64,000 nucleotides of DNA from Candidatus Nomurabacteria bacterium (GCA_020631975.1 JACKGO010000001.1:3409-67408); one strand, 5' to 3'. Shown: positions 8,172-60,986, numbered from the stretch's first letter. The notes: a model not told the origin generated them from the sequence alone. Numbers and translations are program-made.

Positions 8172-8304
8172 TAGATATAACATTTCTATGTAAGAACTCT
8201 TTAGAATGCTAAAAAATAAAACTACTTGTGCGACACATTCCATTTGCAGTAATAATCGGTATTAAGAGTATCTGTTAGAGTCGTGTAAAAATGCTGATAT
8301 TATT

Positions 8305-8334
8305 GTTTCAAAACACTAGCATTTTTGCTATACT
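8305..8334 (+). promoter_or_regulatory. Promoter of giant gene 2 (-35 GTTTCA, 18-nt spacer, -10 TATACT) carrying the CAAAACACTAGCAT box
   Basis: The sequence caaaacactagcatttttgctatact is nearly the same as the island promoters at 30916-30944 and 31707-31735. The spacer holds the palindrome TAGCA-TTTT-TGCTA (8317-8330). Confidence 0.6.
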
Positions 8335-8371
8335 TTATATACGTACTTTAAGGAGTAACAAAAAAGGAAAA

Positions 8372-14300: not shown

Positions 14301-14872
14301 TTGGGCGTATAGTAATAACCTATGGTGCACCAACAATGAATCTTACGGGTGCTAACAGGGCGGTTCGAACTGCTTTGCTATCCCAGCCTCAACTAGCCAA
14401 ATACTCACGTATGATTGACACCGATACAGACGTTTTTCCAAACTCATGGCTATTAAATGGTTTAGATAATTCTATTGGCGCGAGATGGCAAGTTCGTTAC
14501 AGATCTATGAATGACACCGATGGGATTCCAACAGACTGCGGCACCGCAGACATGAGTACTTGGGGGAGAGTGACCAATTTTGGTGATACTAATTTAGGCC
14601 AAGTAAACACCTACACCCCATTAGATGGAAGTGGCACAAACATTAACTGTGCAAGGTATTTCTACTTTTTTGTAGAAATCGATGCTGAACAGACCTTTGG
14701 CTACCCAGAAGACGTTAATAGGGGTCCGACAATTGCTGACTTAAGCTTATTCTTCACTTCTGATCCAAGCAAGAGGCTACGACACGGCAAAACATTTACA
14801 GGAGGGGAGCAACAGCCTCTAGACACTCCTTGTAGGCAAAGTGGTGGCCAGATTAACTGTTCGTTACCATAA
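8372..14872 (+). CDS. Giant membrane-anchored surface protein: N-terminal TM helix, many Kelch-like beta-propeller repeats, glycine-rich (PF12810-like) domain, C-terminal globular domain
   Basis: The start is moved from 8291 to ATG 8372 because it is downstream of the promoter at 8305-8334 and preceded by aaggaaaa. The TM helix is LPFLLRIFALMMAITMFVIIVLDVF. There are more than 15 repeats of the YNGYLYVIGG / YNDTLYSIGG / WNDRLYVVGG type. The glycine-rich domain begins GSGTYVVPAGVTSINVKMWGAGGGGGAGG...LNIYIGSGGAGG. Confidence 0.85.
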   Translation: MDGIKPPIKKRTYYPASNQKEQFIKPASTQPQSKTKRSVNIKHFFNKRPKSSRPIYKAPDKVSFSVKIPRFLQKLINVYMGLPFLLRIFALMMAITMFVIIVLDVFYNKNQVDAYSLNKTDVLLKESSPIYGTSIVKDATGKYYKYNEGYKPGAEVSGLSASPKFSADFAVDPKEGVSVTDVNSNLTVTLKPKYGLKEPQQSENRLIYPLNNNAKKVFTLGAASIKEDILLEKYIRDDMVFDYTLEMPDYLEAKLETDGSISIYGPANSALIGDVSASTESDSQLLDKARQKSSKNRLIFKLPAPYILEVGKTMSKATAEFELKDNIISLKASNLKAANYPITIDPSIYVETAAKLMKGNNETNVDFDVDNELIQKSQTTGARIDSWQSNLDISQEVWGHSTAAAGGYIYRAGGKTEDGSIVTPPVAASSVDSLQSSNSTSFTMSMPGTRPAGDLYVALMCHDGTGAVTPPAGGGWTEFADIGEFAGYYKVGTNEGGGDEAASYTWTGPSEKWGGAILRVTNFNTSNPVSPTPTTASSGSNTTPSFPAITPSNDDTLIIRAMGADNDEIDDAGWAPSGHTSIAYGGPTGTQDCAYGVASMNNPPAAGVSTGTISMASGYVTDTWGSTTIAINPAPSSGSTPTVVNTVEWAKFDSNSLAITSPNPGTGACSGWCNDPVYNLPEGRVNHSMVSYNGYLYVIGGQDPSGSRESTVYIAKLGANGEPQLWHPTDDNKNNWVYWYQDSGLSGGVAKSYLSAVVYNNSMYIVGGQTNASPGGVNTVEKADILPNGKLSSWTTTGMQSLPAGAGRHMGDVVVYNDTLYSIGGFEGASNSSANLRDTVYYSKLNQDGTMNAWQTTSNITTARANFGGKFSYIWGAYIYMGGGCSAVNASGNCTTFSSDMQIASINADGSLGTWRSIGNLDNTRVGYTFIGWQGGLYRLGGCISVSPTSGHCLDALSAVDYGVINPAGEVSTVSITDEVGEGLCVGGTPENCDLPPLGDAAGEGGGMLSSTVILNGYLYVIGGCTNYACSTSSGNTSYVAIGPDGALQAPAVCSGTSVGAWCVDSTNKVNGTSGVSAAGITVFNNRIYLIGGIDETADGLRAVTHNAVNDDGSLDGAWETNSFGGIGVAGELSYTYAYARANPSAASTSPGNLYIIGGCSAFSNSAGCSNSYNTQVYKCNISTVGNISGCDTSGQLQIDAELASEANQGLGLHSGTVYANYIYLIGGYSDNVGDRNTVFYAKFDDNNNIVDAESGTANPASNDDDWIESENNLSIGRRRGFAFGYNGHIYGVGGYNAGGAGIIPFIEWAREDVSDGSIDNFVTSSVTINQRWGLSMAVSNSYAYVVGGCDVGASPGGCSSFEPSVQTFQLYNNDSGTPASYTAASNQFGTDRYAASSIIHNGYIYMAGGCTDTVGNCSTTSNNVQYAALDSQGDIGVWNSTTGGLPAGRGWGKLREAGGTLYWMGGQDNTGDEKSEVYYATPNGVTGNIASWATATNGLPADRTQFGATSWNDRLYVVGGNDDSANVSNTVYISPDLSSGGNITSSWATETTNTPDVPRSGNAVVAYANNLYTFGGFDGSNYLLDSQFAKINSDGSLSAWTFTTPLPNVVRQGEGFAANGYMYVVGGRSANDVCDSNTYVAPISANTTIATGNNPTGVGEWNETNVRYEGDRFGNAVAYNQGRLYLLGGGCIAQNQTVYDTPGSGTYVVPAGVTSINVKMWGAGGGGGAGGSSGAGGPGGGGGYVSSTLTVTPSESLNIYIGSGGAGGTYPGSNSGGGGGGGGHTEINRSGTNLLIAAGGGGGGGGDNSSATPGGAGGGGGGTTGVIGGSSSNANGGNPGTGAAGGTGGTGGSNNGSSGGAETAGDGGNGGSGTGGENNGGQADDGDGGSGDTGGYGGGGGGGGGRYGGGGGSSSQAGDAGGGGGGGGSNYLTGTSQTNSQASGQAPGNSVDSDRGSAGTGGGGGSTTNPGSEGAVGRIVITYGAPTMNLTGANRAVRTALLSQPQLAKYSRMIDTDTDVFPNSWLLNGLDNSIGARWQVRYRSMNDTDGIPTDCGTADMSTWGRVTNFGDTNLGQVNTYTPLDGSGTNINCARYFYFFVEIDAEQTFGYPEDVNRGPTIADLSLFFTSDPSKRLRHGKTFTGGEQQPLDTPCRQSGGQINCSLP

Positions 14873-17045: not shown

Positions 17046-20000
17046 ATGCATAGAGTATATTTAGCGTGGACGCACGCTATACATCGTATAACAGAGTCAA
17101 AGGCCCTCCGCCGTAGTGCTCTGTTTTTTGTTATGCTAGTATCTGTTGCTGTATATATATCTATATACGCGGGTAATGCGGGCGCGGCTGCTAATAACAC
17201 GATTAATTTCCAGGCAAGAGTTCTCAAAAACACTGGTGCGCTCGTGCCAGATGGTTTTTACACTATTCAGTTTAACGTTTACTCTTTAGCGAGTGGTGGC
17301 TCAACGCAGTGGACCGAAACACAAGTGGTGACGAGTAAAAACGGTTATATTACGGCGAGTTTGGGCAGCGTAACGCCGTTTGGGCCAGGCATTGATTGGA
17401 GCCAAGAACAGTGGCTAAGCATGAACATTAATGGCGACGGTGAAATGGCGCCCCGTATGAAGATTACTGCCGTACCGCTGGCGTTTCGGGCGGTCCAGGC
17501 AGATACGCTGACTACGTCTAGTGGAACGATAGCAGCAGATCAACTGACCCAGCTTACACCAGGCCTGGTACAATCCGTTAACTCTACTAACAGTGCACTC
17601 CGTATAAACCAAAATGGTAGCGGTGGCTTGCTGCAGCTTCAGGGTAACGGGGTAGATGTGTTCACGCTTAATAAAAGTGGTGGTCTAGCAATCGCTCAAG
17701 GTTTAACAGTGGGCAACAGTGGTCTGACGACGGCTGGTACAATACGCTGGAGCGGTACCGACTTTGAAGGATACGATGGCAGCGATTGGCGCTCATTTAC
17801 TAGTGGCGGTAGTGGGGGTGGTAGCTCAGGAACACCTAACCTTAAGACGGTAGTCAAGACGACAAACGAAACGGTGAATAATTCTGCTACATTGCAAAAC
17901 GATGACGAGCTGAAGTTTAGCATTGGTGCAGATGAAACGTGGACGTATCGTTTTGTGCTACAGGCTAACTCAGGTACGACACCAGATTTTCGGTTCGCCG
18001 TAACAGCCCCATCTGGAGCAACCTGTCGGGTTGCTTACATTGACCCAGAAGGTGCGACGTCAAATGGCCAGTATGGTTGTGGTGTATCAACTACCACTGT
18101 GTCGGGTAATGGGAGAGTCGATGTGTATGAAATAACTGGCGCGGTTACTAATGGTGCGAATGCGGGTGATGTAACGCTGCAATGGGCACAATTTACGGCT
18201 AATGCAAGTAATACCATTGTGTATGCTGGTAGCTACGTGGTAGCCACCGCTACAACAGATGTAGTCAGCCTAGATTTCACCCAAAACGGTAATAGCTTTT
18301 CACAAACAGCCGTGCTTGGTACCACTGATAATTTTGGGCTTAATGTCATAACCAATGGGCTAACAAGACTGTCTGTCAGTAACGCTGGGGCGGTATCGGT
18401 TGCAAAGGGACTTACAGTGGGCGAGGGTCTAATAGTTGGTAATGGCCTCACGGTGACGACTGGCGGGGTAAATATTACCGGCAGTTCAATATTTAGTGGT
18501 AGCTTGCAAGTATCTAGTGGAGGAGCATCAATAGACGGCGGTGTTAGTCTTACGGGCGGTGGTTTAGATGTAAATAGTAATGGGATTACCAACGCCGGTG
18601 ACATTATAGGTGTGGGTAATAGCCTAACCGCAAGTGGTGGTCTCACCATTTCAACAGGTGCTGGTAATAGTTTACAGCTAGACTCAGGCAATGACATTTT
18701 AATCTTAAACGACGCTACTGTGCGCAGAACCGCAAGCGGTACAACTGCCATAGAGCTGAATGATACGGCAGATACACTACTAAGCATCACCAATAGTGAT
18801 GGTACGGCCGTAGCAGGGCTTAGTGTAGAAGGGGCAATATCTGCCCAAAGCTTTAATGGTGATGGATCGGCGCTTACCAACTTAAGCGCTAGTAACATCA
18901 ACAGCGGTACGCTTAGTGATACGTTGTTGTCTAGTAATGTGGCGCTACTCAATACTGCCCAAAGCTTTAGTGGCATACAGACGTTTGGTAATGGGCTTGT
19001 GGTAGGCAATACGGCAACTGCAGCAGCTGGTACAATCCGTTGGACTGGTACTGATTTTGAAGGTTATGACGGTAGCAGTTGGGTATCATTAACGGGCGGT
19101 GGTGGCGGCGGGCCAGCACCGCTGACTGTCGCTGCCATACAGGCATATGATAATACAGGTGGTACAGATCTTAACTCAGCTACACCTACAGCCGTGCCAT
19201 GGGACGCTGAAACCAAGAAAGATACTGGCTTTACTCATAGTAATTCTACAAATAACACAAGAGTGTATCTTGATGAGCCCGGCTGGTATAAAATTAACTA
19301 TAATATTAGTGGCCTCAACCAATCAGGCAATAGAAATACCGTATTCTGTCAGGTAAGGTTTAACGGCACAACCTATAACTCGCCGAGTGGCTCGTATTCC
19401 TATGCTAGAAATAACACTGATGCCGGAGGTACGAACAGCTCGTCTGTATATGCCCAGACTACAGCAGCGAATGAGTACTATGAGGTATTATGTTCGCAAT
19501 CTGGTTCGTCTGGCCCGCAATATGCTGTAGCCGGCAGTTCATGGACGATAGCTGAAAAAACTGCCGCACCTGCAGGTAGCCCTGGCAGCGGCTTTTTACA
19601 GGGTGGTAATAGTTTTGGTGCAGCAGCCATACTTGGTACGTCAGATGTCAATGATTTAGAAATTGTTACTGGTGGTCTTACGCGTATAACAGTTTCAGCG
19701 AGCGGTGATACCACCATTGCAGGTCTCGCGACAATTAGCGGGAATTTAGTAGCCAACGCAAATACACTCTTGAACGGTGATGTAACTATAGGTGACGCTG
19801 CGACTGATGTTTTAACAATTAACTCAGACACCTTGCAGCTACCAAACGGCCTAGATATTGCTAATGGAACGCTTGTCTTTGACGCCGCAGGCAATAAAAT
19901 TGGTATAAATGCTTCTGCTTCTAATACGCTAAGTGTCAATACTGCTGCCACAGCAGATTCCGCTGCAGAAGTCTTAATTTACACCAATGGTGTCAACCAA

Positions 20001-21125
20001 AAAGGTTTAGTACTACAATCTGTTTCTGGCCAGTTAGCCAACGTTTTTGAAGTCCAAACAGACGGCGGCGTGCCAGTAGTGGCCGCCAGTTCAGATGGTT
20101 TACTATCACTTGGTAGTGATATTTCTGGATCGTCTAATCAAGGTAGATTACTGTTACACGATGGCATTAATGCCAATGGCTTTACCAGCGTGCTGGGCGT
20201 TACGTCACTTACCGCATCAAGGAATATTGACCTACCAGATGCCAGCGGAACGGTCTGTATTAGCGGCAGCGACGCCTGTGGCTTTATATTAATTGCCCCG
20301 GGGAGTGCCCAACAAGACAACTCAACCAATAATAGCCTATACATAAATAAAACAGGTGCATCAGGCGACATCCTCAACTTACAAAAGAATGGAACGTCGG
20401 TGCTAAGAATGGTGAATAGCGGTGCTTTACAGCTATCACTTACCAGTAGCACGGCTTTCACTGTTAAAAATGGCAGTGGTGTAGACTACTTTAATGTCGA
20501 TACCAACGGTGGGCTCATACGCATAGGTGGTGCAAGTGCAGATGCTAACGGTGTGCTACTAGTGCTTGATACTAAGAATACATCTGGCGATCCAACAGGT
20601 ACGGATGGTGGTATGTATTATAACAGCGCTTCAGGTAAGTTTAGATGTTATGAAGGTGGCGAATGGATTGATTGTATTGGTACGCGTCAAGTCAGGAGCT
20701 TTATAGATACGACATCTGATTCTGCAGTAGACTCTAACACAACATCATACTGGGATACCAGCGGTGAGAATAATAATTCGGTTCCTAACTTTTCACCAAG
20801 CACCACGGCTAAGTCTATAACTGGTAGCATATCTATGGAAGTGTCTTCGGCCACCACTGCTGACCGTTCTATTGTTGCACGGGTAGAAAGAAGTATTGGA
20901 TCGCCGGCGGCCTGTGGCAGTGGTACCCCTGTTGGAACCATCCTAAGTACTTTTACTACCAATAATGGTGAACAGGCTTCAAATACAATGATATTCCTAG
21001 ATAGCCCAAATACAACCAGTGCCGTGTACTACACATTGTGTTCTGATACAGCCACCAGCAATGCAAGCAGCATGACCATAAATAGAATTCGTATCACCCT
21101 AGAAGAAGCTAACAACAGCAACTAA
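17046..21125 (+). CDS. Giant secreted/surface protein with tail-fibre-like repeats
   Basis: This is a 1359-aa ORF with an N-terminal signal/TM segment (ALFFVMLVSVAVYISIYAGNAGA). It has a duplicated motif GTIRW(S/T)GTDFEGYDGSxW and LGTxDxxxLxxxTxGLTR(L/I)xVSxxG repeats. The C-terminal GGMYYNSASGKFRCYEGGEWIDC module is shared with giant gene 1. Confidence 0.85.
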   Translation: MHRVYLAWTHAIHRITESKALRRSALFFVMLVSVAVYISIYAGNAGAAANNTINFQARVLKNTGALVPDGFYTIQFNVYSLASGGSTQWTETQVVTSKNGYITASLGSVTPFGPGIDWSQEQWLSMNINGDGEMAPRMKITAVPLAFRAVQADTLTTSSGTIAADQLTQLTPGLVQSVNSTNSALRINQNGSGGLLQLQGNGVDVFTLNKSGGLAIAQGLTVGNSGLTTAGTIRWSGTDFEGYDGSDWRSFTSGGSGGGSSGTPNLKTVVKTTNETVNNSATLQNDDELKFSIGADETWTYRFVLQANSGTTPDFRFAVTAPSGATCRVAYIDPEGATSNGQYGCGVSTTTVSGNGRVDVYEITGAVTNGANAGDVTLQWAQFTANASNTIVYAGSYVVATATTDVVSLDFTQNGNSFSQTAVLGTTDNFGLNVITNGLTRLSVSNAGAVSVAKGLTVGEGLIVGNGLTVTTGGVNITGSSIFSGSLQVSSGGASIDGGVSLTGGGLDVNSNGITNAGDIIGVGNSLTASGGLTISTGAGNSLQLDSGNDILILNDATVRRTASGTTAIELNDTADTLLSITNSDGTAVAGLSVEGAISAQSFNGDGSALTNLSASNINSGTLSDTLLSSNVALLNTAQSFSGIQTFGNGLVVGNTATAAAGTIRWTGTDFEGYDGSSWVSLTGGGGGGPAPLTVAAIQAYDNTGGTDLNSATPTAVPWDAETKKDTGFTHSNSTNNTRVYLDEPGWYKINYNISGLNQSGNRNTVFCQVRFNGTTYNSPSGSYSYARNNTDAGGTNSSSVYAQTTAANEYYEVLCSQSGSSGPQYAVAGSSWTIAEKTAAPAGSPGSGFLQGGNSFGAAAILGTSDVNDLEIVTGGLTRITVSASGDTTIAGLATISGNLVANANTLLNGDVTIGDAATDVLTINSDTLQLPNGLDIANGTLVFDAAGNKIGINASASNTLSVNTAATADSAAEVLIYTNGVNQKGLVLQSVSGQLANVFEVQTDGGVPVVAASSDGLLSLGSDISGSSNQGRLLLHDGINANGFTSVLGVTSLTASRNIDLPDASGTVCISGSDACGFILIAPGSAQQDNSTNNSLYINKTGASGDILNLQKNGTSVLRMVNSGALQLSLTSSTAFTVKNGSGVDYFNVDTNGGLIRIGGASADANGVLLVLDTKNTSGDPTGTDGGMYYNSASGKFRCYEGGEWIDCIGTRQVRSFIDTTSDSAVDSNTTSYWDTSGENNNSVPNFSPSTTAKSITGSISMEVSSATTADRSIVARVERSIGSPAACGSGTPVGTILSTFTTNNGEQASNTMIFLDSPNTTSAVYYTLCSDTATSNASSMTINRIRITLEEANNSN

Positions 21126-29506: not shown

Positions 29507-29527
29507 ATTGGGAGTAGCACGCAATAA

Positions 29528-30588
29528 CGTAATTAGTTCAACACCTTTGCAACACTCGCTGGTGTTCTACACTCTAAGCTCAAGTGTAGCCTTTCTTCGT
29601 TGTAGTAGGCAAGGTAGTTTGCTACCTTGCCATATAGTTCTTTAGAGAATGGATTTGTGGAACCAATACATTCTTCTTGTATTGTCCGGTTGAACCGCTC
29701 TATGTGAGCATTGTCATTCGGTCGTCGCACTCTACTGTGACGTACTGTCGTACCTTGCGCTTTAAGTAGCTCTTCAAAGTTCTTACTAAATTCGGGTCCA
29801 TTGTCAGCCTGGACGGTTTTGAAACGGAACTGAGCATAGGCCTGGCCTCGCTGGATGACTGCAGCGGCTACACGCTGGCTGAGCACAGTACTGTATTCGG
29901 CATACGCCCAACGAGAGTAAACATCAACCAGTGTATACAAATAGCTCCGCTTTTTTGTTCGGTGATCATACAGGTGTACCGTGTCGGTTTGAATGAAGTC
30001 ACCTGGACACTGTACATCTGGGCGCGGTAGTGGCGGACGCCACCGACGTTGCCACTTTTGTCGTACCACCAACCCGAGTCGGTACAATACCCGACGAACC
30101 GTACTGAGTGACACTTCGGTACCTTCTTGTTTGCAGTAGGCGTGAACAATTGTTGCGCAACGGTTGTACTTAGTGCGGTAATACCGAATGCGTTCAACAA
30201 CCATATTGGGTACTGCCCGACCAAAGAAATGAGGTCGGCTACTGTTGGTAGGTATACGCCACGTACAAGCTGCGAGACGAAAGCTGCTGGGCACTTGGGA
30301 ATCTGAGTTTCTTTTTGGTCGGTTGACATTGGTGAGCTGAACATTCTGGTTTAGTAGCTCCCATTTGCGTAGCCAACGCCATAAGGTTGTGCGGTGGACT
30401 CCACATCTTCTTGCAGCAATTGTCAAAGGCATACTTTGCTCAATGACGAGCCTAACGGCTTCTGCTCTCGCTTTAGGTAGTAATGGGTTGCTAGAATAGC
30501 TCATGTGGCTGTTCTCCTGTTTAGATTAGTACACTTACAGTGTAGAACAGCCACATGTTATGTGTTGCAAAGCTGTTGAGTCATTACG
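29528..30588 (-). mobile_element. IS481-family-like insertion sequence (~1.06 kb)
   Basis: It has imperfect terminal inverted repeats: cgtaattagttcaacacctttgcaacac (29528-29555) versus the reverse complement of 30562-30588, cgtaatgactcaacagctttgcaacac. There is a single DDE transposase ORF. No clear target-site duplication was seen. Confidence 0.75.
29533..30504 (-). CDS. DDE transposase (HTH plus rve integrase core)
   Basis: It has an N-terminal HTH (RRCGVHRTTLWRWLRKW) and an rve core (QTDTVHLYD...QADNGPEFS...NAHIERFNRTIQEE). Confidence 0.9.
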   Translation of the reverse strand: MSYSSNPLLPKARAEAVRLVIEQSMPLTIAARRCGVHRTTLWRWLRKWELLNQNVQLTNVNRPKRNSDSQVPSSFRLAACTWRIPTNSSRPHFFGRAVPNMVVERIRYYRTKYNRCATIVHAYCKQEGTEVSLSTVRRVLYRLGLVVRQKWQRRWRPPLPRPDVQCPGDFIQTDTVHLYDHRTKKRSYLYTLVDVYSRWAYAEYSTVLSQRVAAAVIQRGQAYAQFRFKTVQADNGPEFSKNFEELLKAQGTTVRHSRVRRPNDNAHIERFNRTIQEECIGSTNPFSKELYGKVANYLAYYNEERLHLSLECRTPASVAKVLN

Positions 30589-30594
30589 CAAAGC

Positions 30595-30655: not shown

Positions 30656-30901
30656 ATGACATCACCAGAATCCATCTCACCAGAATTTGCCGCCAGATTG
30701 GCAGAAAAAGAACAAGCAAGAAAACGTACAGAATTAAAAAGAGCATTGGCGCTATTTGCGTTTGCGCTAGCAGCTGTCTTCTTTGCATCGCAAGAGGGAC
30801 TTATTGATAACCCGTTTGCCACACACCCAGATTCTTCTGTATCTATAGAAGATGGTCCAGATACTTCACGCCACACCATACCTACTGGAACAGAACGTTA
30901 G
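30656..30901 (+). CDS. Small single-pass membrane protein (IDNP family, paralog of 28254..28469)
   Basis: It has the same architecture and conserved tail as 28254..28469. Confidence 0.6.
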   Translation: MTSPESISPEFAARLAEKEQARKRTELKRALALFAFALAAVFFASQEGLIDNPFATHPDSSVSIEDGPDTSRHTIPTGTER

Positions 30902-30915
30902 TACACTGTAAAAAT

Positions 30916-30944
30916 TTGACAAAACACTAGCATTATGCTACTAT
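30916..30944 (+). promoter_or_regulatory. Cassette promoter P1 (TTGACA, 17-nt spacer, TACTAT) with the palindrome TAGCAT-T-ATGCTA
   Basis: A ~90-nt promoter plus leader block is almost identical to 31702-31790. The CAAAACACTAGCAT box is shared with 8309-8322. Confidence 0.7.
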
Positions 30945-30999
30945 GTTCTATAACGACTGACAAACAAAAACTACTAAAAAATAAAAAAGGAATAAATTA

Positions 31000-31632
31000 A
31001 TGAGCCACGAACAAGTACCAGTACGTGATCCAAAAGGAGAACACGAAGTAGATAGTAGCTGGGATTTAGACAAAGCAAGTAAATTAGCACCACTGCTATT
31101 ACAAGATAAAGGATTTCGTAATAAAATGAATGATTTATCTAGAGATCCTGAGAATTTATCTTTAAAGCTAGAAACAGATGAGGCCGCGGAAGGCTTAATA
31201 AGATTTACAGAAATGCTGTATGATGAAATACCTGAGTTGTTTGAAAATATACCTGATGAGCAGAAAGATGACGTCGCACGAGAACTATACGGCCTTGCCA
31301 GAAAAGAGGCTGAAAAGACACAAGATGCAGAACGATACGAAGTGTGTGCTGCAGAAATACGTGAATGGCATAAAAAGAAGATGCCTATGGGCGTTGCTAT
31401 GAGTTTGGGATATGGCGAATTTCTTAGTAGAAGGGAAATCGATTTTGCGCCAGATATTGCACTTCAAATGAAAAATATTCTTAACCACTACGAGATGTCA
31501 GATTCTGATAAGTCATTAGCAATGATTGCTTTGTTTGAAACTCTTCGTGACGAAGCAAATGTCGCATCACACGACGCAGGCTCTGCCTATGAAGAATTAT
31601 TTGATAAATTCTTACCTACTACTGAAAAATAA
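31000..31632 (+). CDS. Hypothetical acidic protein (210 aa)
   Basis: The ORF follows promoter P1 and an AAGGA Shine-Dalgarno sequence. I recognise no domain. Confidence 0.6.
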   Translation: MSHEQVPVRDPKGEHEVDSSWDLDKASKLAPLLLQDKGFRNKMNDLSRDPENLSLKLETDEAAEGLIRFTEMLYDEIPELFENIPDEQKDDVARELYGLARKEAEKTQDAERYEVCAAEIREWHKKKMPMGVAMSLGYGEFLSRREIDFAPDIALQMKNILNHYEMSDSDKSLAMIALFETLRDEANVASHDAGSAYEELFDKFLPTTEK

Positions 31633-31706
31633 GAAGAGTAAATAAGTTTGAAGAATTGTATAAGTCATTAGTCTTAGGTGAGATAACAGTAATATACTCT
31701 GAAAAT

Positions 31707-31735
31707 TTGACAAAACACTAGCATTATGCTACTAT
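31707..31735 (+). promoter_or_regulatory. Cassette promoter P2 (duplicate of P1)
   Basis: The sequence is ttgacaaaacactagcattatgctactat, identical to P1 across the -35/-10 region. Confidence 0.7.
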
Positions 31736-31790
31736 TGATGCTAACGACTGACAAACAAAAACTAATAAAAAATAAAAAAGGAATAAAAAA

Positions 31791-32291
31791 ATGAGCGAAC
31801 AAATGCCCATGCAAAGTGAAGTAAATACACAATTAGATAAAAAACCTGATACTGTCGTAGATCCTCAAAAAGCTGAAATTATGGCATATGCAGAAAATCC
31901 TATCAGGTCATCTGCGATATTAAAAAGAGAGATAGTTGATACGCTTGAAGAAGCAGCTAAACTTAATCCAGCTAAGACTTTTAATTCTGTAAATAGCCTA
32001 GCTGATTACTTTGTAGAATTGGGTTCTCAGTCCGAAGACAATCCTTTTATAAATTGGAATACTGAATATGCCGATGCTGTGGCGAACAGAATAATCAAAG
32101 CTCAATATGGAGATAAGACTGAACTTACGGTTATTGATGTAATTAATTACTTTGAATCTGATGCAGAATACTTAGACATAGATGCTAATATGGAGGGTGA
32201 GCGTGCTTCCGATTCATTTGATGCGTTACAAAAACGAATGGGTGAAATAGCTGCTAGCAGAAAAGGAAAGTATACCAGGACTTCATTATAA
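31791..32291 (+). CDS. Hypothetical acidic protein (166 aa)
   Basis: The ORF follows P2 and the conserved leader. Its N-terminal motif AEIMAYAENP resembles AWYMAHAEKP of 32581..33021. Confidence 0.6.
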   Translation: MSEQMPMQSEVNTQLDKKPDTVVDPQKAEIMAYAENPIRSSAILKREIVDTLEEAAKLNPAKTFNSVNSLADYFVELGSQSEDNPFINWNTEYADAVANRIIKAQYGDKTELTVIDVINYFESDAEYLDIDANMEGERASDSFDALQKRMGEIAASRKGKYTRTSL

Positions 32292-32352: not shown

Positions 32353-32392
32353 GTTAATTTATTCTTATAATTCAAATCCTAACCTCTAAAAT

Positions 32393-32465
32393 CTAGTTAT
32401 TTTCTTGGAGGGCGTGGCGTTCGGCGTTTGCGAGTTCATCTATAGGGTCTTGAATATCACCAGCC
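32393..32465 (-). pseudogene. Displaced duplicate of the prfA 3' end (last ~23 codons plus stop)
   Basis: The minus strand reads [23 protein letters not shown], against the true prfA C-terminus [23 protein letters not shown]. The DNA match 32411-32465 versus 33078-33132 has 4 mismatches. Confidence 0.7.
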
Positions 32466-32580
32466 ACAGTAAATGGTATTTCACAAAATATTAATTTCTA
32501 AGTAGTTATTAAGCAAACTGGTCATAGTGTTTGTGGTTGCGTCGCCTTAAGACAGTAGGATACTATTACCCTTATTAAAT

Positions 32581-33021
32581 ATGAGGTTAAGAGTGAAGGC
32601 CAATAAAAAAAATGAGTTAGTGCGAAATAAACAAAAAGCATGGTATATGGCTCATGCCGAAAAACCTTATCAGGAACGGATTATTGCAGCTGAACAAATA
32701 GAGAGCATGGCCATTGATTTACAAGAATTTCACCAAGAAGATATAGTAGTTTCAAAAAAGACAATGCAAAAAATGATGGGTGTAGGCAGGCTCGCTTTAT
32801 TAAGATACTGGCTAAGAGGTGAGCCGTCGTACTATATTTCGCAGTGCGGAAAAACAGCAATCATAAGTACCATAGATTTTATCTATTACGGGCAAGCTAA
32901 AGAGCTGTCAGCTTCTGAAATAGAATATCAGGCAGAAGGTCTTGTAGGTCAGCTAGAAGTGTGGTCAACAACAAATGCTAAAACAGCTTGGCGAATGCAC
33001 AAAATAACATCCAATATCTAG
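32581..33021 (+). CDS. Hypothetical protein (146 aa)
   Basis: The ORF lies between the two copies of the prfA 3' end. I recognise no domain. Confidence 0.5.
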   Translation: MRLRVKANKKNELVRNKQKAWYMAHAEKPYQERIIAAEQIESMAIDLQEFHQEDIVVSKKTMQKMMGVGRLALLRYWLRGEPSYYISQCGKTAIISTIDFIYYGQAKELSASEIEYQAEGLVGQLEVWSTTNAKTAWRMHKITSNI

Positions 33022-33059
33022 TATCCATAATCTAATATCTATAATCCAATACTAATAAT

Positions 33060-34115
33060 CTATGCGCTGTCTTGTAAGGCGTGGCGTTCGGCGTTGGCGA
33101 GTTCGTCAATAAGGTCTTGAATATCACCAGCCAGCGCGGCAGGGATATTGCTGCGGCTGTAGCCTATGCGGTGGTCCGTAATACGGTCTTGCGGAAAGTT
33201 ATAGGTGCGGATTTTTTCGCTGCGGTCGCCGCTGCCAATAAGTTTTTTGCGGGCATCGCTGAGCTGTTTTTGCTCATCGTCTATCTTCATTTGCATTAAC
33301 CGTGCCCGTAGCACGCCCATTGCTTTATCTTTGTTTTTGATTTGGGACTTTTCGTCTTGGCAGGTAACAACAAGGCCAGTAGGTACGTGGGTAATACGCA
33401 CAGCACTATCTGTTGTGTTTACACTTTGGCCGCCATGGCCGCTAGCTCTATATACATCTACCCGTAAGTCACTGGGGTTAAGCTCTATGTCTGTTTCTTC
33501 TGCTTCTGGTAACACAGCCACAGTTGCTGTGCTGGTGTGTATGCGGCCTTGGCTTTCTGTAACTGGTACGCGTTGCACGCGGTGTACGCCGGCTTCATAC
33601 TTATATGTTTTGTAGGCATCGCTCCCACGAATGGCAAAAATAATTTCTTTAAAACCGCCAGATTCTGATGGGCTTTCGCTAATGAGCTCGATTTTAAAAC
33701 TGTGGAGTTCGCCGTAGCGAACATACATACGATACAGATCTGCACTAAACAGTGAAGATTCATCGCCACCGGCACCTGCCCGAATTTCTATAATACAGTC
33801 GCGTTCGTCGTTTGGATCTTTTGGGGTGAGGGCAGCGTCTAGCGCTTCACTTAGGGTAGCAAGTTTGGTGGTGAGTTCGGTTACTTCTATTTCTGCAAGT
33901 TCGGCAAGGTCGCCACCACTGCTTAGCAGTTCTTTTGCTTCTGTAAGCTGTTCTTGGGCTGCGATGTAATCATCATATAAGGCGATGGTAGATTCTAAAT
34001 AATTTTGGCGTTTGGCAAGTTTTGGGTATTCTGGGCTACTAAAAATAGCAGTGTCATTAAGGCGACCTTTTAGTTCGGCAAGTTCTGCACGGAGGGTATG
34101 AATTTTTTGTTCCAT
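33060..34115 (-). CDS. prfA: Peptide chain release factor 1
   Basis: It has the RF1 tripeptide region [16 protein letters not shown] and the GGQ motif ([20 protein letters not shown]). Confidence 0.97.
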
Positions 34116-34166
34116 ATTTATATAGTTTACAGCTAATCTGTAGGTATTATCAAAAACATATTAGTA

Positions 34167-34384
34167 TTTTTCATTTTTGTGTGGTCAAAAACGAACCAAA
34201 AACCCACAGGGCGCCCAGCTCCCAATACTCATCTGCTAGTAACTTCTACATAGCACAAAAAGGACTCCTTGCAGTCGGTCTGGCACTTGTTATTTTAGGA
34301 AGTGCCAGACCACTCTTTTTGTATTGGCCATGCTAGAAGTTACATCAGCTGAATCAATAGTGAGCCGAGATGCCCAGACCCAGC
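34167..34384. repeat. Structured 217-bp repeat, copy A (candidate ncRNA; same orientation as copy B)
   Basis: It starts with the invariant 39-mer ttttcatttttgtgtggtcaaaaacgaaccaaaaacccac. It has nested helices and an apical 12-bp hairpin at 34277-34311. It lies between rpmE and prfA. Confidence 0.85.
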
Positions 34385-34478
34385 AGTCCGCTAGCAGACT
34401 CAATGTTGCAAAGAAGGTATCCATAATGATGAGCTCATAACGGATTACGTTTTGCCGTAAGCTGTGTACGGACGGCTT

Positions 34479-38989: not shown

Positions 38990-39856
38990 ATGCCTATGGA
39001 CACGCTTATAAAAAACAAAAAACGAATCGTTGTACCATGGGATGCTCGGTATGCGTATAGCGTCACTATTTTGGCGTATGTTGTTTCGCAGCTTTTTACA
39101 ACGCTGCCACTACTCGTAGCACTGTTTTTTACGAATTGGTCCACAATAGAAGATAGTTTATTAGATCAACCCTGGATGAGCCTGAGTCTAACAGGGGTAG
39201 GGGCGGTTGGTATTTTTGTTGTTTTGTATTACTTTTTGCATAAAAAAAAGTATGGTTTTTCGCAACTAAAGCTACAAAAGGGGTTGCCACTTAAATCGTT
39301 ATTGCTTGTTGCAGGAACGTATATTGTGTACATCTTGCTTAGTGTTGCCGTGGCAGCTATTGTGCAGGCGCTGTTTCCATCTTTTAATGCAGATCAAGAA
39401 CAGCTGGTTGGTTATAAAAATGCCGTTGGCTGGCAATTAATCTTAGCGTTTGTTGGCTTGGTGGTGGTGCCACCAATTGCAGAAGAGATGTTATTTAGAG
39501 GCTTTTTATACCAAGGGCTGCGTGACCACTGGAATAAACATGCCACGTTATGGTGGGGTTTTGGCGTAGCTATTGCCGTGGCACTACTAGCAGGTGCTGT
39601 CGCCGGCATTATTGTAGCGCTGCTCATAGTTGTATCTATAGTTATTGGTAAAAAGCATCCAGCACGTGCTGCGGCCATTGTTACCAGTGTGCTTTTTGGC
39701 TTGGTACATATGCAGTGGAACATTAGTATAGATACGTTTATATTTTCTTTTGCGCTAATATACGTGTTTGAGAAAACACAAAATTTGTGGGCGGCGATTG
39801 TGCTGCATGCGCTTAAGAATGGAATTGCGTTTGTAGGATTATTTATTTTATCTTAA
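38990..39856 (+). CDS. CPBP-family intramembrane glutamic endopeptidase (CAAX protease-like)
   Basis: It has the motifs EEMLFRG, FGLVH and HALKN in a polytopic protein. Confidence 0.85.
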   Translation: MPMDTLIKNKKRIVVPWDARYAYSVTILAYVVSQLFTTLPLLVALFFTNWSTIEDSLLDQPWMSLSLTGVGAVGIFVVLYYFLHKKKYGFSQLKLQKGLPLKSLLLVAGTYIVYILLSVAVAAIVQALFPSFNADQEQLVGYKNAVGWQLILAFVGLVVVPPIAEEMLFRGFLYQGLRDHWNKHATLWWGFGVAIAVALLAGAVAGIIVALLIVVSIVIGKKHPARAAAIVTSVLFGLVHMQWNISIDTFIFSFALIYVFEKTQNLWAAIVLHALKNGIAFVGLFILS

Positions 39857-39863
39857 GCAAATA

Positions 39864-40080
39864 TTTTCATTTTTGTGTGGTCAAAAACGAACCAAAAACC
39901 CACTGGGCGCTCAGCTCCCAATACACATCTGCTTGTAACTTCTACATAGCACAAAAAGGACTCCTTACAGTCGGTCCGATTCTTGTTAATAAAGACGAAT
40001 CAGACTATTCTTTTTGTCTTGGCCATGCTAGAAGTTACATCATCTGAATCAATAGGGCGCTGAGATGCCCAGACCCAAGC
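39864..40080. repeat. Structured 217-bp repeat, copy B (left bracket of the R-M cassette)
   Basis: It begins 8 nt after the CPBP stop codon. It has the same 39-mer and helices as copy A. The apical stem sequence is changed but pairing is retained (ggtccgattctt / acgaatcagact). Confidence 0.85.
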
Positions 40081-40113: not shown

Positions 40114-40149
40114 ACGCTACAGATAGCGTAGGTACGCTATCTGTAGCGT
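40114..40149. other. Perfect 17-bp inverted repeat (strong hairpin or cruciform)
   Basis: acgctacagatagcgta-gg-tacgctatctgtagcgt. An A-run lies upstream (aattaaaaac) and a T-run lies 10 nt downstream (tttttt). Confidence 0.8.
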
Positions 40150-40324: not shown

Positions 40325-41140
40325 ATGAGTAAAAAAATTCTTGAGGGTGTTGGAGTTTCTCCTGTATTTAAGGGTTCGAACTATGCACTGTACTTGCATG
40401 ATTCTATTGAGCTTATAAAACAGCTACCAGAAAATAGTATAGATATGATTTTTGCGGATCCTCCATACAATTTATCTAATGGTGGCTTTACTGTACATGC
40501 AGGCAAAAGAGTCAGCGTTCATAAAGGCGACTGGGACAAAAGTAATGGTGTAGAAGACGATTATATTTTCCACCATAACTGGATAAAAGAGTGTTATAGA
40601 ATTTTAAAGCCTGAAGGAACTATATGGATAAGTGGCACCTACCACTCCATATACCAGTGTGGCTATGCGTTACAACAAGTTGGTTATAAAATTTTAAACG
40701 ATATAAGTTGGTTCAAGCCTAATGCATCACCCAACTTAAGTGGTAGATACTTTACTGCGAGCCATGAAACATTGATTTGGGCAAGGAAAGATCATAAATC
40801 AAAACATGTTTTTAATTACCAAGATATGAAAAATGGTGAGTGGCACGTGGTTGATTTAATAAAAAAAGAAGGCAAACAGATGAGAAGTGTTTGGGCTATT
40901 GGGACGCCCAAACAGGATGAAAAAAAATATGGTAAGCATCCTACGCAAAAACCATTAGCACTATTGGAAAGAATTATATTAGCCTCAACACACCCATCTC
41001 ATGTAATACTTGATCCATTTACTGGAAGCTCAACTACAGGTGTGGCTGCTCTTAAGTTTGGAAGAAAATTTATTGGTATTGATCTTGAAAAAGAATATTT
41101 AAATGTGTCAAAAAGTCGTTTAGAGGACGTAACTATTTAA
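40325..41140 (+). CDS. Beta-class N6/N4 DNA methyltransferase (type II R-M)
   Basis: The catalytic motif IV (FADPPYN) precedes the SAM motif I (ILDPFTGSSTTGVAA), which is the order of the PF01555-type family. Confidence 0.9.
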   Translation: MSKKILEGVGVSPVFKGSNYALYLHDSIELIKQLPENSIDMIFADPPYNLSNGGFTVHAGKRVSVHKGDWDKSNGVEDDYIFHHNWIKECYRILKPEGTIWISGTYHSIYQCGYALQQVGYKILNDISWFKPNASPNLSGRYFTASHETLIWARKDHKSKHVFNYQDMKNGEWHVVDLIKKEGKQMRSVWAIGTPKQDEKKYGKHPTQKPLALLERIILASTHPSHVILDPFTGSSTTGVAALKFGRKFIGIDLEKEYLNVSKSRLEDVTI

Positions 41141-41150
41141 AGGAGAAATA

Positions 41151-41681
41151 ATGATAGAAGGTGGTATCGGCGGTGCAAATACTAAAACTGGAATCATATT
41201 TGAAGGACGCGTAGATCTACTCACTAAATTCAAGACACTTGATAGATATTCTGTTAAAGAAAACATTATTTTGTACGATAAAAAAGAGGTTGCGCGTTAC
41301 TACAAGAAACGATCACTTTATAAATTACTCGAAGAAAATAATATTAACTATAAAGATTATATCTCTAAGCGGCTAGAACCTGATAACGCCATTTATGTCA
41401 TCAAAGACAATACACTAAATGTCATAGAAATGAAGTTTCAAAGAGTTGCGGGATCTGTAGACGAGAAGCTACAAACCTGCGATTTTAAGAAAAAACAGTA
41501 TAAAAAATTATTCTCAGCACTGAATTATGAGGTTGAATACATCTATATATTAAGTGATTGGTTTAGAAAAGAAGAGTACAAGGATACTCGCGACTATATT
41601 ATTTCTGTTGGTTGTAAGTTATATTTTGAATATTTACCTCTAAATGAAATTGGCTTACCTGTGCCAGATGAAAGTCAATAA
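41151..41681 (+). CDS. Putative type II restriction endonuclease, PD-(D/E)xK
   Basis: It is a 176-aa ORF starting 10 nt after the methyltransferase, with an AAGGAGA SD. It has a candidate PD...ExK motif (EPDNAIYV...NVIEMKFQ). The assignment rests on context plus the motif only. Confidence 0.6.
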   Translation: MIEGGIGGANTKTGIIFEGRVDLLTKFKTLDRYSVKENIILYDKKEVARYYKKRSLYKLLEENNINYKDYISKRLEPDNAIYVIKDNTLNVIEMKFQRVAGSVDEKLQTCDFKKKQYKKLFSALNYEVEYIYILSDWFRKEEYKDTRDYIISVGCKLYFEYLPLNEIGLPVPDESQ

Positions 41682-41714: not shown

Positions 41715-42038
41715 GTGAATTTAAAAGATATTATAATACCGTCACAATTTAGCAAATCAGATATTATTGAAGCATATATTTTTGGAAGTACCGCTAAAAA
41801 TATTGATGGTCACGATAGAGATATTGCTTTATTTATCAGAAGTAATCACCCATCTTTTATACAAATGGGTAATGAATATAATTTGTATAATAATAATCTT
41901 GAGTATCATGTACTGCCTTATAATGACCAAGGCAAATCAATCTTTTATGCGATGTTGGAAATGAAAGATTATAAATATGGCACAGGTAAAGGTGTAGCTA
42001 TCTCGGTAGATATAGATGAGAATACTGATGCAATGTAG
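41715..42038 (+). CDS. Minimal nucleotidyltransferase (MNT-like)
   Basis: It has a GS...DxD signature (IFGSTAKNIDGHDRDIALFI) and a GTG start. Confidence 0.6.
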   Translation: MNLKDIIIPSQFSKSDIIEAYIFGSTAKNIDGHDRDIALFIRSNHPSFIQMGNEYNLYNNNLEYHVLPYNDQGKSIFYAMLEMKDYKYGTGKGVAISVDIDENTDAM

Positions 42039-42074: not shown

Positions 42075-42329
42075 ATGTCACAAGAAGTATTAAGGCAATC
42101 TGATGACGATTTGCCGATTAATGTAGATGAGCTTCTCATAGAAATACAACTAGCTGCGAAAGAGCTCGGCAATGGGCGTAAGCATATGGATGAACGCCGT
42201 AAAATAGCTTATAGGTATATTATTAAAGAAAATATAATTGCACTGGGGCTAGACCCCCAGAACTACTACGGCGATTACCGCGCATTGCTACAGGCTCGCC
42301 CTTCAAGTCAAATTGTTGACGAAAACTAA
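42075..42329 (+). CDS. Hypothetical protein (84 aa)
   Basis: The ORF is downstream of the MNT-like gene. It has no recognisable motif. Confidence 0.4.
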   Translation: MSQEVLRQSDDDLPINVDELLIEIQLAAKELGNGRKHMDERRKIAYRYIIKENIIALGLDPQNYYGDYRALLQARPSSQIVDEN

Positions 42330-42380
42330 TTTTAGTAACAAATATTTATCTGATTCATTATTAAGCTTTTATTGAACTCT

Positions 42381-42431
42381 GCTGATGCCCAGTGGGTTTT
42401 TGGTTCGTTTTTGACCACACAAAAATGAAAA
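42381..42431. repeat. Partial copy D of the structured repeat (invariant tail only, orientation as copy C)
   Basis: gctgatgcccagtgggtttttggttcgtttttgaccacacaaaaatgaaaa contains the reverse complement of the invariant 39-mer. Confidence 0.85.
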
Positions 42432-42494
42432 CCAGAATAAATAGAGGTTCTTAAAATCAATGATGTTTATTTAGTATCCTTCATTGAACGATTG

Positions 42495-42711
42495 GCTGGG
42501 TCTGGGCATCTCGGCTCACTATTGATTCAGCTGATGTAACTTCTAGCATGGCCAAGACAAAAAGAGTAGTCTGACACTTCCCAAAGTAACAAGTGTCAGA
42601 CCGACTGTAAGGAGTCCTTTTTGTGCTATGTAGAAGTTACTAGCAGATGAGTATTGTGAGCTGAGCGCCCAGTGGGTTTTTGGTTCGTTTTTGACCACAC
42701 AAAAATGAAAA
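42495..42711. repeat. Structured 217-bp repeat, copy C (inverted relative to A/B; right bracket of the R-M cassette)
   Basis: Its reverse complement aligns end to end with copies A and B. The apical stem is gtctgacactt / aagtgtcagac. Confidence 0.85.
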
Positions 42712-42841
42712 GTAATATAAGTAATATAGGTACTAAAAAGTACCAGAAATAAGTTGTAGTGTATCTACAAATTATTAATTTATGAAAAGACTATAAAAAG
42801 AGTATTTATTTTCCGTATGTTTTAGGAGTACTATTAGCCAT

Positions 42842-43162
42842 ATGGACTATAAAACTATGCAACAACAGGCACTACAGATAAGTAACTTGTACGATATGTT
42901 AAATAAAAAACATGCACAAAAAATATGGAACGAACAAGATGTTATGGCAGGTTTTGTGGGTGACGTAGGAGATTTATCTAAATTAATATTGGCAAAGAAT
43001 AATTTGCGTAGTAAAGACAACGTAGACGAAGCTTTAGCGCACGAACTGAGTGATTGTTTATGGTCTTTGCTTGTGCTGGCAGACAAGCTTGGTATAGATT
43101 TAGACCAGGCATTCATAAAAACAATGGATAGCCTAGAACAAAAGCTTACTCAAAAACTGTAG
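42842..43162 (+). CDS. MazG-like all-alpha NTP pyrophosphohydrolase
   Basis: The small 106-aa helical protein has DEALAHELSDCLWSLLVLADKLGIDLDQAF, typical of the MazG/NTP-PPase fold. Confidence 0.6.
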   Translation: MDYKTMQQQALQISNLYDMLNKKHAQKIWNEQDVMAGFVGDVGDLSKLILAKNNLRSKDNVDEALAHELSDCLWSLLVLADKLGIDLDQAFIKTMDSLEQKLTQKL

Positions 43163-59894: not shown

Positions 59895-60986
59895 ATGAAC
59901 GGCACAGAACTACAAACCGTACTAACAGACCTCCAAACGCAAGTTTCTGCCGACATGCAACGATTAGACATAGCGTCCGCCGAAGCTTTAATATCAACCA
60001 TCACTACTGCCCAGCAATCGCCAGATTTTTGGCAAGATGCACAAGCAGCGCAAGCCAGTATGCAGCAACTCAGCAAACTGAACCAAAAAGTACAGCCGTG
60101 GCAGGCACTTGCTGGCACAATAGCAGACACGTTAGAGCTGTTAGCATTGCAAGATGATGCGTTGCTACCAGAAATTACCAAAACAGTAGAGATCCTTCAA
60201 GTAGAATACGCAGCATGTAAAAAACTTGCACAGTACAATGGCCCATACGATGACCACGATGCTATAATCACATTGTACTCAGGGGCGGGTGGCACCGATG
60301 CGCAAGATTGGGCGCAAATGCTGCTGCGTATGTACACCCGTTGGGCAGAACAAAATAAGTATACGGTTAGCTTGCTCCAAGAATCGCCCGGCGAAGAAGC
60401 TGGAATAAAAAGTGCAACCTTACAAATACGTGGAGCATTGGCGTACGGAAAGCTAAAAGGCGAACATGGTGTACATCGTTTGGTGCGCTTAAGCCCCTTT
60501 AATGCCGATAATTTGCGCCAAACGAGTTTTGCCAAGGTAGACGTACTGCCAAAAATAGATGCTCCAGAAGAAGTTGCTATAGACGAAAAAGACTTAAAAG
60601 TAGATGTCTATAGGGCAGGAGGCCATGGTGGGCAAAGTGTTAATACAACAGATAGTGCTGTTCGTATCACGCACCTACCAACAGGCATAACGGTGGCTAT
60701 TCAAAATGAACGATCACAGTTGCAAAATAAAGAAACAGCCCTGACGATTGTGCGTTCGCGTTTGGCGCAACTACAGCTCGAACAACACACCCAAGACATC
60801 GCCAAACTAAAAGGTCCAAACGAACAAGCCGCCTGGGGCAACCAAATACGTAATTATGTGCTACATCCTTACAGTATGGTAAAAGACACCCGTACCAAAT
60901 ACGAAACGTCAGATGTCCAAGGTGTTTTAGACGGCTCTATAAACAGTCTTATAGAAGCGTACGCAGAGTATGCCATCAGTAGTTAA
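59895..60986 (+). CDS. prfB: Peptide chain release factor 2 (uninterrupted ORF, no +1 frameshift site)
   Basis: It has the SPF tripeptide (RLSPFNA) and the GGQ motif ([20 protein letters not shown]). Confidence 0.95.
   Translation: MNGTELQTVLTDLQTQVSADMQRLDIASAEALISTITTAQQSPDFWQDAQAAQASMQQLSKLNQKVQPWQALAGTIADTLELLALQDDALLPEITKTVEILQVEYAACKKLAQYNGPYDDHDAIITLYSGAGGTDAQDWAQMLLRMYTRWAEQNKYTVSLLQESPGEEAGIKSATLQIRGALAYGKLKGEHGVHRLVRLSPFNADNLRQTSFAKVDVLPKIDAPEEVAIDEKDLKVDVYRAGGHGGQSVNTTDSAVRITHLPTGITVAIQNERSQLQNKETALTIVRSRLAQLQLEQHTQDIAKLKGPNEQAAWGNQIRNYVLHPYSMVKDTRTKYETSDVQGVLDGSINSLIEAYAEYAISS

Follow-up and report, generated by a model that had tools for sequence, protein, structure and literature searches.

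A small family of structured palindromic intergenic repeats, with pairing kept on one strand, in an uncultured member of Saccharibacteria

Repeat copies and the genes around them

The window analysed here is a stretch of 64,000 nt from the chromosome of an uncultured member of Saccharibacteria, and three full copies and one fragment of an intergenic repeat span 8.5 kb of it. The flanking genes are of the housekeeping kind: rpmE, prfA, rpsB, tsf, frr, uppS, rseP, proS, greA, lysS, serS and secA. Copy A (34168-34382, minus strand, 215 nt) is found between rpmE (L31, 34479-34859, minus) and prfA (33060-34115, minus). The tail of copy B (39864-40077, minus strand, 214 nt) begins 7 nt past the stop of a CAAX-protease gene (38990-39856, plus). 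Copy C (42497-42711, plus strand, 215 nt) is placed between a gene for 84 amino acids (42075-42329, plus) and a MazG-like gene (42842-43162, plus), and a 3' fragment of 45 nt (42387-42431, plus strand), consisting of GCCCAG and the 39-nt tail, is found 65 nt upstream of C and points the same way. The three loci are 91-97% identical; compared with copy C, identity is 95% for A and 91% for B, which is the most diverged copy. The original prediction had described these three copies and the partial one, with coordinates that were off by 1-6 nt, and it had assigned to all four an invariant string of 39 nt; such a string is indeed present in all four copies of the window, and exact searches extend it to 40 nt, beginning at the last G of GCCCAG. 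An alignment and a covariance model, which had been proposed as a check, were built, and the search of the window with this model returns the three full copies (258.7 bits for A, 240.9 for B and 266.7 for C) and the fragment, and none in addition. The same set is obtained with a repeat finder, exact searches, nhmmer and the covariance model with its filters off, the rest of the 64-kb window being free of copies in searches allowing three mismatches, with nhmmer and with the unfiltered covariance model, and shuffled sequence gives no match. It is to be noted that the fragment is not an empty target site, a reading that was considered and excluded: it retains GCCCAG of the 3' arm, and is thus a truncated copy.

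Copies A and C are sited in the largest intergenic gaps, and in both cases the sense strand of the element, that is, the minus strand for A and B and the plus strand for C, is the coding strand of both neighbouring genes. Copy B is antisense to both of its neighbours, and on its own sense strand it comes immediately downstream of a perfect terminator-like hairpin of 16 bp. This palindrome, at 40114-40149, has the arms ACGCTACAGATAGCGT and ACGCTATCTGTAGCGT around ACCT with T-runs on both sides, and from its sequence is likely to be a bidirectional terminator between B and the methyltransferase gene that follows. Copy B stands at the left edge of a cassette of low GC content (31-37%, against 42-46% in the surroundings and 43% in B itself), which encodes a type II methyltransferase (40325-41140), a PD-(D/E)XK nuclease (41151-41681) and a nucleotidyltransferase (41715-42038).

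How stable are these copies among strains? The segment 39858-42052, between the CAAX-protease gene and proS, is a strain-variable island. In the strain contigs L018 and L020 this segment, with B and the restriction-modification cassette, is swapped for a gene of 219 amino acids while the fragment and C are retained, and C and the fragment are present without B in L007 as well; one of the alternatives at the island in these three contigs has an IS30-like transposase inserted. It was considered whether B and C make up a composite transposon with the restriction-modification genes between them; this was excluded by the persistence of C without B in these contigs, and also by the break-points 39857 and 42053, which lie away from the repeats. 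At locus A, the allele is identical in L004 and L008; L001 has a copy lacking 142 nt (columns 67-208 of the alignment), the deletion having occurred between two ACAAAAA repeats; and in L003, L006 and L016 the whole spacer between rpmE and prfA, including A, is replaced by a gene of the 23S_rRNA_IVP family. This replacing gene, equivalent in position to 34116-34478, encodes a four-helix-bundle, Avd-like protein of 118 amino acids next to an identical RF-1 protein, and it is apparently a small mobile gene. Copy B is identical in 11 contigs. No clean pair of a filled and an empty site was found among the strain contigs compared, in which alternative alleles replace whole segments. Many metagenome contigs terminate inside the element, as repeats would be expected to cause.

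Other rearrangements are seen in the window. A 77-nt copy of the 3' end of prfA (32390-32466, 84% identical to 33057-33133) is located 667 bp downstream, and the two copies bracket an ORF of 146 amino acids (32581-33021) of unknown function; small genes downstream of prfA vary by strain (142 and 168 amino acids versus 146, 166 and 210), and the arrangement looks like a cassette insertion at the 3' end of prfA, with target duplication, as far as can be read from the sequence. A direct repeat of 112 nt (30894-31005 and 31685-31796, 87% identical) covers the upstream regions and starts of the adjacent unknown ORFs 31000-31632 and 31791-32291, which points to small genes having been duplicated in tandem at this place. 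There are two genes for class I release factors (33060-34115, minus; 59895-60986, plus), each with PCRF and RF-1 domains, and a 96-nt inverted repeat, I3 (33375-33470 and 60591-60686, 81% complementary), reflects the coding similarity shared by them. Three giant ORFs (510-7493, 8291-14872 and 17046-21125; 2327, 2193 and 1359 amino acids) contain internal repeats including Gly-rich GGTGGCGGT tracts, with Kelch/beta-propeller matches in related contigs, and the first of them ranges from 1493 to 3095 amino acids between strains.

Fold of the unit and maintenance of pairing on one strand

The unit is repeated, folds into a long hairpin, and conserves its pairing in a strand-specific manner. Read on its sense strand (plus for C), it begins with TGGGT, continues into an imperfect hairpin of about 171 nt and ends with a U-rich conserved tail. 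In copy C the long hairpin extends over 42502-42672 on the plus strand (alignment columns 6-176), with 63 pairs in six helices and a three-way junction close to the apex; the helices include GUAACUUCUA/UAGAAGUUAC, ACAAAAAG/CUUUUUGU, an apical stem of 11-12 bp and a side stem of 4 bp. The apical stem-loop (42569-42601, plus strand, columns 73-105, helix 5) is where the majority of the two-sided changes and wobbles described below are found. The tail (42673-42711, plus strand) consists of TGGGTTTTTGG, a hairpin of 10-6-10 layout, and then AA. Its AU-rich 10-bp hairpin (42684-42709, plus strand), TTCGTTTTTG-ACCACA-CAAAAATGAA, is helix 7, an invariable helix in which a single pair is G.U when read on the sense strand, and a consensus scan finds in the tail an outward-facing TTGACC resembling a -35 box (42691-42696, plus strand). 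The helices named in the original prediction are all present in the minimum free energy fold, and the tract UUUUUGGUUCGUUUUU does lie 4 nt past the closing helix, as had been claimed. Folded as RNA, copy C reaches -89.6 kcal/mol compared with -56.3 +/- 4.5 for shuffled sequences (z = -7.4), 0 of 200 shuffles folding as well; with DNA parameters z is -9.5.

Is the pairing a property of one strand, or just of a palindrome in duplex DNA? In every allele the sense strand is more stable than the antisense strand, by 10-26 kcal/mol (about -80 to -88 against -57 to -78 kcal/mol), and the covariance model gives 267 bits for the sense strand and 32 for the antisense. Eight distinct full alleles were collected from contigs of other strains (one of A, one of B and six of C), and in these 98.1% of the pair cells on the consensus structure are standard. 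Seven pairs vary on one side, all of them alternating between Watson-Crick and G.U on the sense strand, and three further G.U pairs are fixed; at these 10 wobble positions, and in the helices generally, A.C is opposed in none of the eight alleles on that strand. When a transition hits a Watson-Crick pair, one strand acquires G.U and its complement A.C, either strand being equally likely to receive the G.U, and by our estimate the chance that 8 of 8 transitions fall as G.U on the same strand is about 0.004. Since all wobbles are G.U on the sense strand, the pairing is maintained in a single strand, as RNA or as single-stranded DNA, and it is not the mere symmetry of duplex DNA. The strand that had been named beforehand, minus for A and B and plus for C, is therefore the correct one, folding better and carrying every wobble as G.U.

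Changes on both sides of a pair are seen at 22:161 (A-U and C-G), 79:99 (C-G and U-A) and 80:98 (A-U and U-A), and position 78:100 passes stepwise through A-U, G.U and G-C. The apical difference between A and C pointed out in the original prediction, G-C to A-U, is this last pair, and its G.U intermediates are found in other strains. For copy B, three consecutive pairs had been described as swapped; the double changes at 79:99 (C-G to U-A) and 80:98 (A-U to U-A) are real, while 76:102 is a U.G wobble and 82:96 a G.A mismatch. Similarly, in the outer helix of B the pair 22:161 co-varies as had been stated (A-U to C-G), and 20:163 is broken (G.A). Altogether, 3-4 two-sided changes and seven one-sided wobble changes stand beside six mismatch-bearing pairs, which are transversion mismatches, among eight alleles of three loci of one species; column shuffles attain the observed covariation in 2-6 of 500 trials. 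As there are only three loci, 91-97% identical, the covariation rests on few events. Moreover, 11 of the approximately 20 differences of copy B fall in columns 79-102, and this cluster resembles the product of a single complex event, be it recombination with an unseen member of the family or a template switch. Template switching during replication is known to yield apparently compensated changes in a hairpin in one step (PMC8794818). The covariation is real but thin, and a part of it is probably this single clustered event in B. Alleles of locus C are mosaics with states common to A or to B, which suggests from the sequences that gene conversion has operated among the copies.

The two parts of the unit are conserved to different extents. 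At locus C, 6.2% of columns in the hairpin body vary across strains, compared with 2.4% in the neighbouring 84-aa gene and 0-8.5% in other segments of the spacer. The body drifts at a spacer-like rate and yet keeps its pairs; thus, the sequence is free to change while pairing is maintained. In the tail, none of the 39 columns varies among the four copies of the window, whereas in a set of five full alleles (A, B and three C alleles) the body varies in about 15% of its columns, a contrast that we estimate to arise by chance with a probability of about 0.002. In other strains changes do occur in the tail, namely in its loop in L026 and also in the fragment, which has 1-2 substitutions there.

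Distribution and competing explanations

The pattern of the tail was found in one contig among 185,579 species-representative genomes, the same locus in a metagenome-assembled genome of an uncultured Candidatus Saccharibacteria, and a 23-mer of the body that is invariant in all copies was found in two JGI metagenome contigs, which correspond to locus A and locus C in the same species. Exact-word scans of these species genomes and JGI metagenomes gave no match outside this one Candidatus Saccharibacteria species. Viral contigs contain neither the tail nor the body pattern (a 16-mer has eight chance hits there, none of which extends), and phage and plasmid collections gave no match by blastn. 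There is no copy in about 20 kb of extra flank in related contigs, and no diverged copy in 143 kb of related contigs searched with nhmmer and the unfiltered covariance model. Within the scope of these searches, the family appears to be low in copy number, clustered and private to one lineage. No Rfam family matches anywhere in the window at gathering thresholds, and at E <= 10 nothing overlaps the element in 42350-42750; no tRNA or tmRNA was found by the corresponding scan. The original prediction had recognised no conserved motif of 6S, SRP, tmRNA or RNase P RNA in the element, and in Rfam neither these nor any other family, HEARO included, reaches its gathering threshold. In the literature searched, structured intergenic repeats have not been described in Saccharibacteria or other CPR bacteria.

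What, then, is the element? The original prediction took it for a structured RNA of about 200 nt, and three paralogous genes for a new small RNA of about 175-215 nt, each with its own promoter and ended at the U-rich tract, would agree with the strand-specific fold, with the maintained pairing, with the order of hairpin and U-rich tract, and with the lack of an Rfam match, which a new RNA would have. The structure and the strand hold; a free-standing gene does not follow from them. The copies resemble one another only from the first base of the unit onward, the upstream flanks being unrelated, so that no promoter is shared and a free-standing small RNA gene is left unsupported; nor did a consensus scan detect a promoter-like site at a constant distance upstream. 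In addition, the element is as variable as neutral spacer DNA, copies are deleted, lost or replaced between strains (A in L001, B in L018 and L020), the family is low in copy number, exact-word scans matched nothing beyond one species, and the best-conserved part is the tail past the hairpin instead of loops or junctions. Copy B would also have to be a gene antisense to both neighbours just past a terminator-like hairpin. We therefore regard small RNA genes as rather improbable. Single-strand pairing could also be asked of DNA, if the element moves in a strand-specific way as single-stranded DNA and a transposase encoded elsewhere recognises the hairpin and the 40-nt tail; by analogy this would resemble REPIN/RAYT or elements derived from IS200/IS605. 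Under such a model, which we think unlikely, the preference for one strand is natural, as G.T wobbles also stabilise DNA hairpins, and so are the lack of target-site duplications and of inverted-repeat ends, typical of such elements, the conservation of a tail on one side only, the existence of a 5'-truncated copy, and the presence of copies in both orientations at strain-variable junctions. REPIN hairpins, too, keep their pairing by compensatory change (PMC3116915). However, neither a Y1/HUH transposase nor a recombinase nor a RAYT gene was found among the window ORFs scanned with Pfam (about 45 of them, not including the three longest or a handful of short ones), and no transposase or recombinase emerged when the unknown neighbouring proteins were compared with Pfam, NCBIfam, PHROGs and PADLOC. 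No conserved target sequence is present beside either end, the strain contigs offer no clean filled-versus-empty pair, and instead of the tens to hundreds of dispersed copies of REPINs there are three copies and one fragment, the three being within 8.5 kb with none in the other approximately 70 kb and only one or two matching contigs in each metagenome or genome collection. Taken more generally, it is doubtful that the element is more than a passive repeat and works as a functional strand-specific nucleic-acid machine found in this Saccharibacteria lineage alone, be it a new regulatory RNA of about 215 nt with three paralogues or a mobile element of a new type acting through a single-stranded hairpin; it is likewise a minor possibility that, in the mobile form of such a machine, movement would leave no target-site duplication, the invariant 40-nt tail would be the recognition site of the enzyme, and the element would shape the strain-variable defence island around it.

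The position of the copies may remind one of cassette exchange. attC sites of integrons fold strand-specifically. A folded recombination site of the attC or Xer type, working via the hairpin or the 10-6-10 palindrome, would fit the observations that every copy borders a strain-variable segment, that the layout of the tail resembles the core site of a recombinase, and that strand-specific folding is shared with attC. Nevertheless, inspection of both strands shows neither the R''/R' core motifs (RYYYAAC/GTTRRRY) nor a dif-like sequence, the window ORFs scanned include no integrase or recombinase nearby, the copies have mixed orientations, and the left break of the island (39857) is 7 nt outside the tail while the right one (42053) is far from any copy. 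The attC and dif/Xer readings were excluded by the missing motifs and recombinase, and a recombination site in general is very unlikely. An insertion sequence of the rve type is located only 4 kb away, at approximately 29527-30589, with a transposase of 323 amino acids (29533-30504, minus strand) that has an HTH domain and an rve integrase core; its terminal inverted repeats are imperfect and of about 28 bp (CGTAAT..CAACA.CTTTGCAACAC). This neighbour, the IS30-like element of another strain, and the character of the repeat itself, which is short, non-coding, intergenic, palindromic, multi-copy and present in both orientations, might call for an ordinary IS-derived MITE moved by a DDE transposase. 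Yet complementarity is confined to the internal arms (columns 6-176), and TGGGTCTGGGC... at one end of the unit does not pair with ...CAAAAATGAAAA at the other; the insertion sequence has terminal inverted repeats that are related to neither end of the element; and A, B, C and the fragment all lack a target-site duplication, the sole direct repeat at the copies being TGGGT on either side of the hairpin, inside the conserved unit. Target-site duplications with a cognate transposase, which according to the original prediction would have marked an ordinary MITE, were thus not found in the window, and we give this possibility very little credence. As for coding capacity, an antisense ORF with a GTG start is open for 51-56 codons in all three copies and its product is partly hydrophobic, so that a small hydrophobic peptide such as a type I toxin could be imagined. 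But a frameshift in the loop gives B an unrelated sequence in its C-terminal half, the amino acid is altered by most of the differences that separate A from C, a ribosome-binding site is absent, and no protein sharing words with it was found in 5.8 billion clusters. The frameshift and the amino-acid-changing differences exclude the coding reading of the 51-aa ORF, and a peptide gene of this kind is barely conceivable. Even taken jointly, a recombination site, an ordinary MITE and a peptide gene remain quite improbable.

Possible action in transcripts and relation to known repeats

The element adds a new example to a known class, that of structured palindromic intergenic repeats: an imperfect palindrome with a single-strand fold, it is found in either orientation between genes of transcription units, as ERIC and Correia elements (CREE) are. 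The reading that we favour, at about an even chance and from sequence comparison, goes further, and supposes a small lineage-restricted family of the ERIC/Correia/REPIN kind that is co-transcribed with its flanks at loci A and C. Because A and C lie between co-directional genes with their sense strand on the coding strand, they are probably part of those mRNAs. If so, the unit would be transcribed within the message, where its RNA would fold as a long hairpin and, with the UUUUUGGUUCGUUUUU tract, may end or attenuate read-through. The hairpin might also protect the upstream message, and its long double-stranded stem may serve as a target and cut site of RNase III. At the outer end, TTGACC together with a -10 box in the flank could then restart transcription of the downstream gene. 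Correia elements create promoters at their ends and bind RNase III, and an action of this kind on transcripts has been proposed for them and for ERIC sequences alike (PMC2649163).

Several observations bear on this proposal of a co-transcribed repeat. A terminator scan reports the fragment together with its own upstream sequence as a terminator-like hairpin, with a stem of seven pairs followed by TTTTTGGTTC, whereas the full copies, with their gap of 4 nt before the U-tract, are not called; in an intrinsic terminator a G+C-rich stem has the U-tract 0-2 nt behind it. By the consensus scan, promoter-like sites are TTGACC-16-TAATAT at C and TTGACC-16-CAGAAT at the fragment, and no good -10 box follows the tail at A or B; such a site is thus usable at two of the four positions. 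Since copy B is antisense to its neighbours, termination as formulated above cannot cover it, and the conservation of the tail above that of the body is explained only loosely by the terminator and promoter functions. As to how the copies were made, nearby copies may have recombined or undergone gene conversion, or the element may on rare occasions have transposed in a strand-specific way.

Genomes of Saccharibacteria and of CPR bacteria in general are tiny and streamlined, and structured intergenic repeats are undescribed there in the literature searched. The element offers a clean, small example of pairing that is maintained on one strand within the population of a single species, and it marks the borders of a strain-variable island carrying a restriction-modification system. 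If it is true that it ends and restarts transcription, it would serve between genes as a portable insulator; should it be mobile, the cognate enzyme would be worth finding. As it stands, the feature is well documented but of an ordinary kind, and it breaks metagenome assemblies at these loci.

Among known systems, ERIC sequences, also called IRUs, are imperfect palindromes of about 127 nt in transcribed intergenic regions of enterobacteria, with tens to hundreds of copies. The present element resembles them in being an imperfect palindrome with an RNA hairpin, placed between genes of a transcription unit in either orientation, variably present among strains and presumed to affect the ends or stability of mRNAs; it differs in its length of 215 nt, its asymmetry, the conserved 40-nt tail on one side, the number of three copies, the absence of sequence similarity and its occurrence in a different phylum, of the CPR lineage. 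The Correia elements of Neisseria are also hairpin-forming intergenic repeats that can supply promoter elements at their ends, and the present element in RNA form would, like them, be a long duplex which RNase III could bind or cut (PMC2649163), but their terminal inverted repeats, TA target duplication, IHF site and hundreds of copies have no counterpart here. With REPINs the element shares a long hairpin made from inverted arms, compensated pairing and strand-specific behaviour (PMC3116915), whereas its arms are about 85 nt instead of about 25-40 nt, it has no GTAG-type REP head and an extra one-sided tail, and it occurs in very low copy number with no RAYT in the window. As in intrinsic terminators, a gene is followed on its coding strand by a stable hairpin and then a U-rich tract at A, at C and at the fragment; here, however, the stem is about 10 times longer than usual and ends 4 nt before the U-tract, in a repeated block that includes another conserved hairpin as well as a hexamer resembling a -35 box. 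Finally, attC sites of integrons are likewise imperfect palindromes with a strand-specific fold between variable gene cassettes, while the present element has no R''/R' core and no integrase in the window, is longer than known attC sites, appears in mixed orientations, and has housekeeping genes between its copies A and B.
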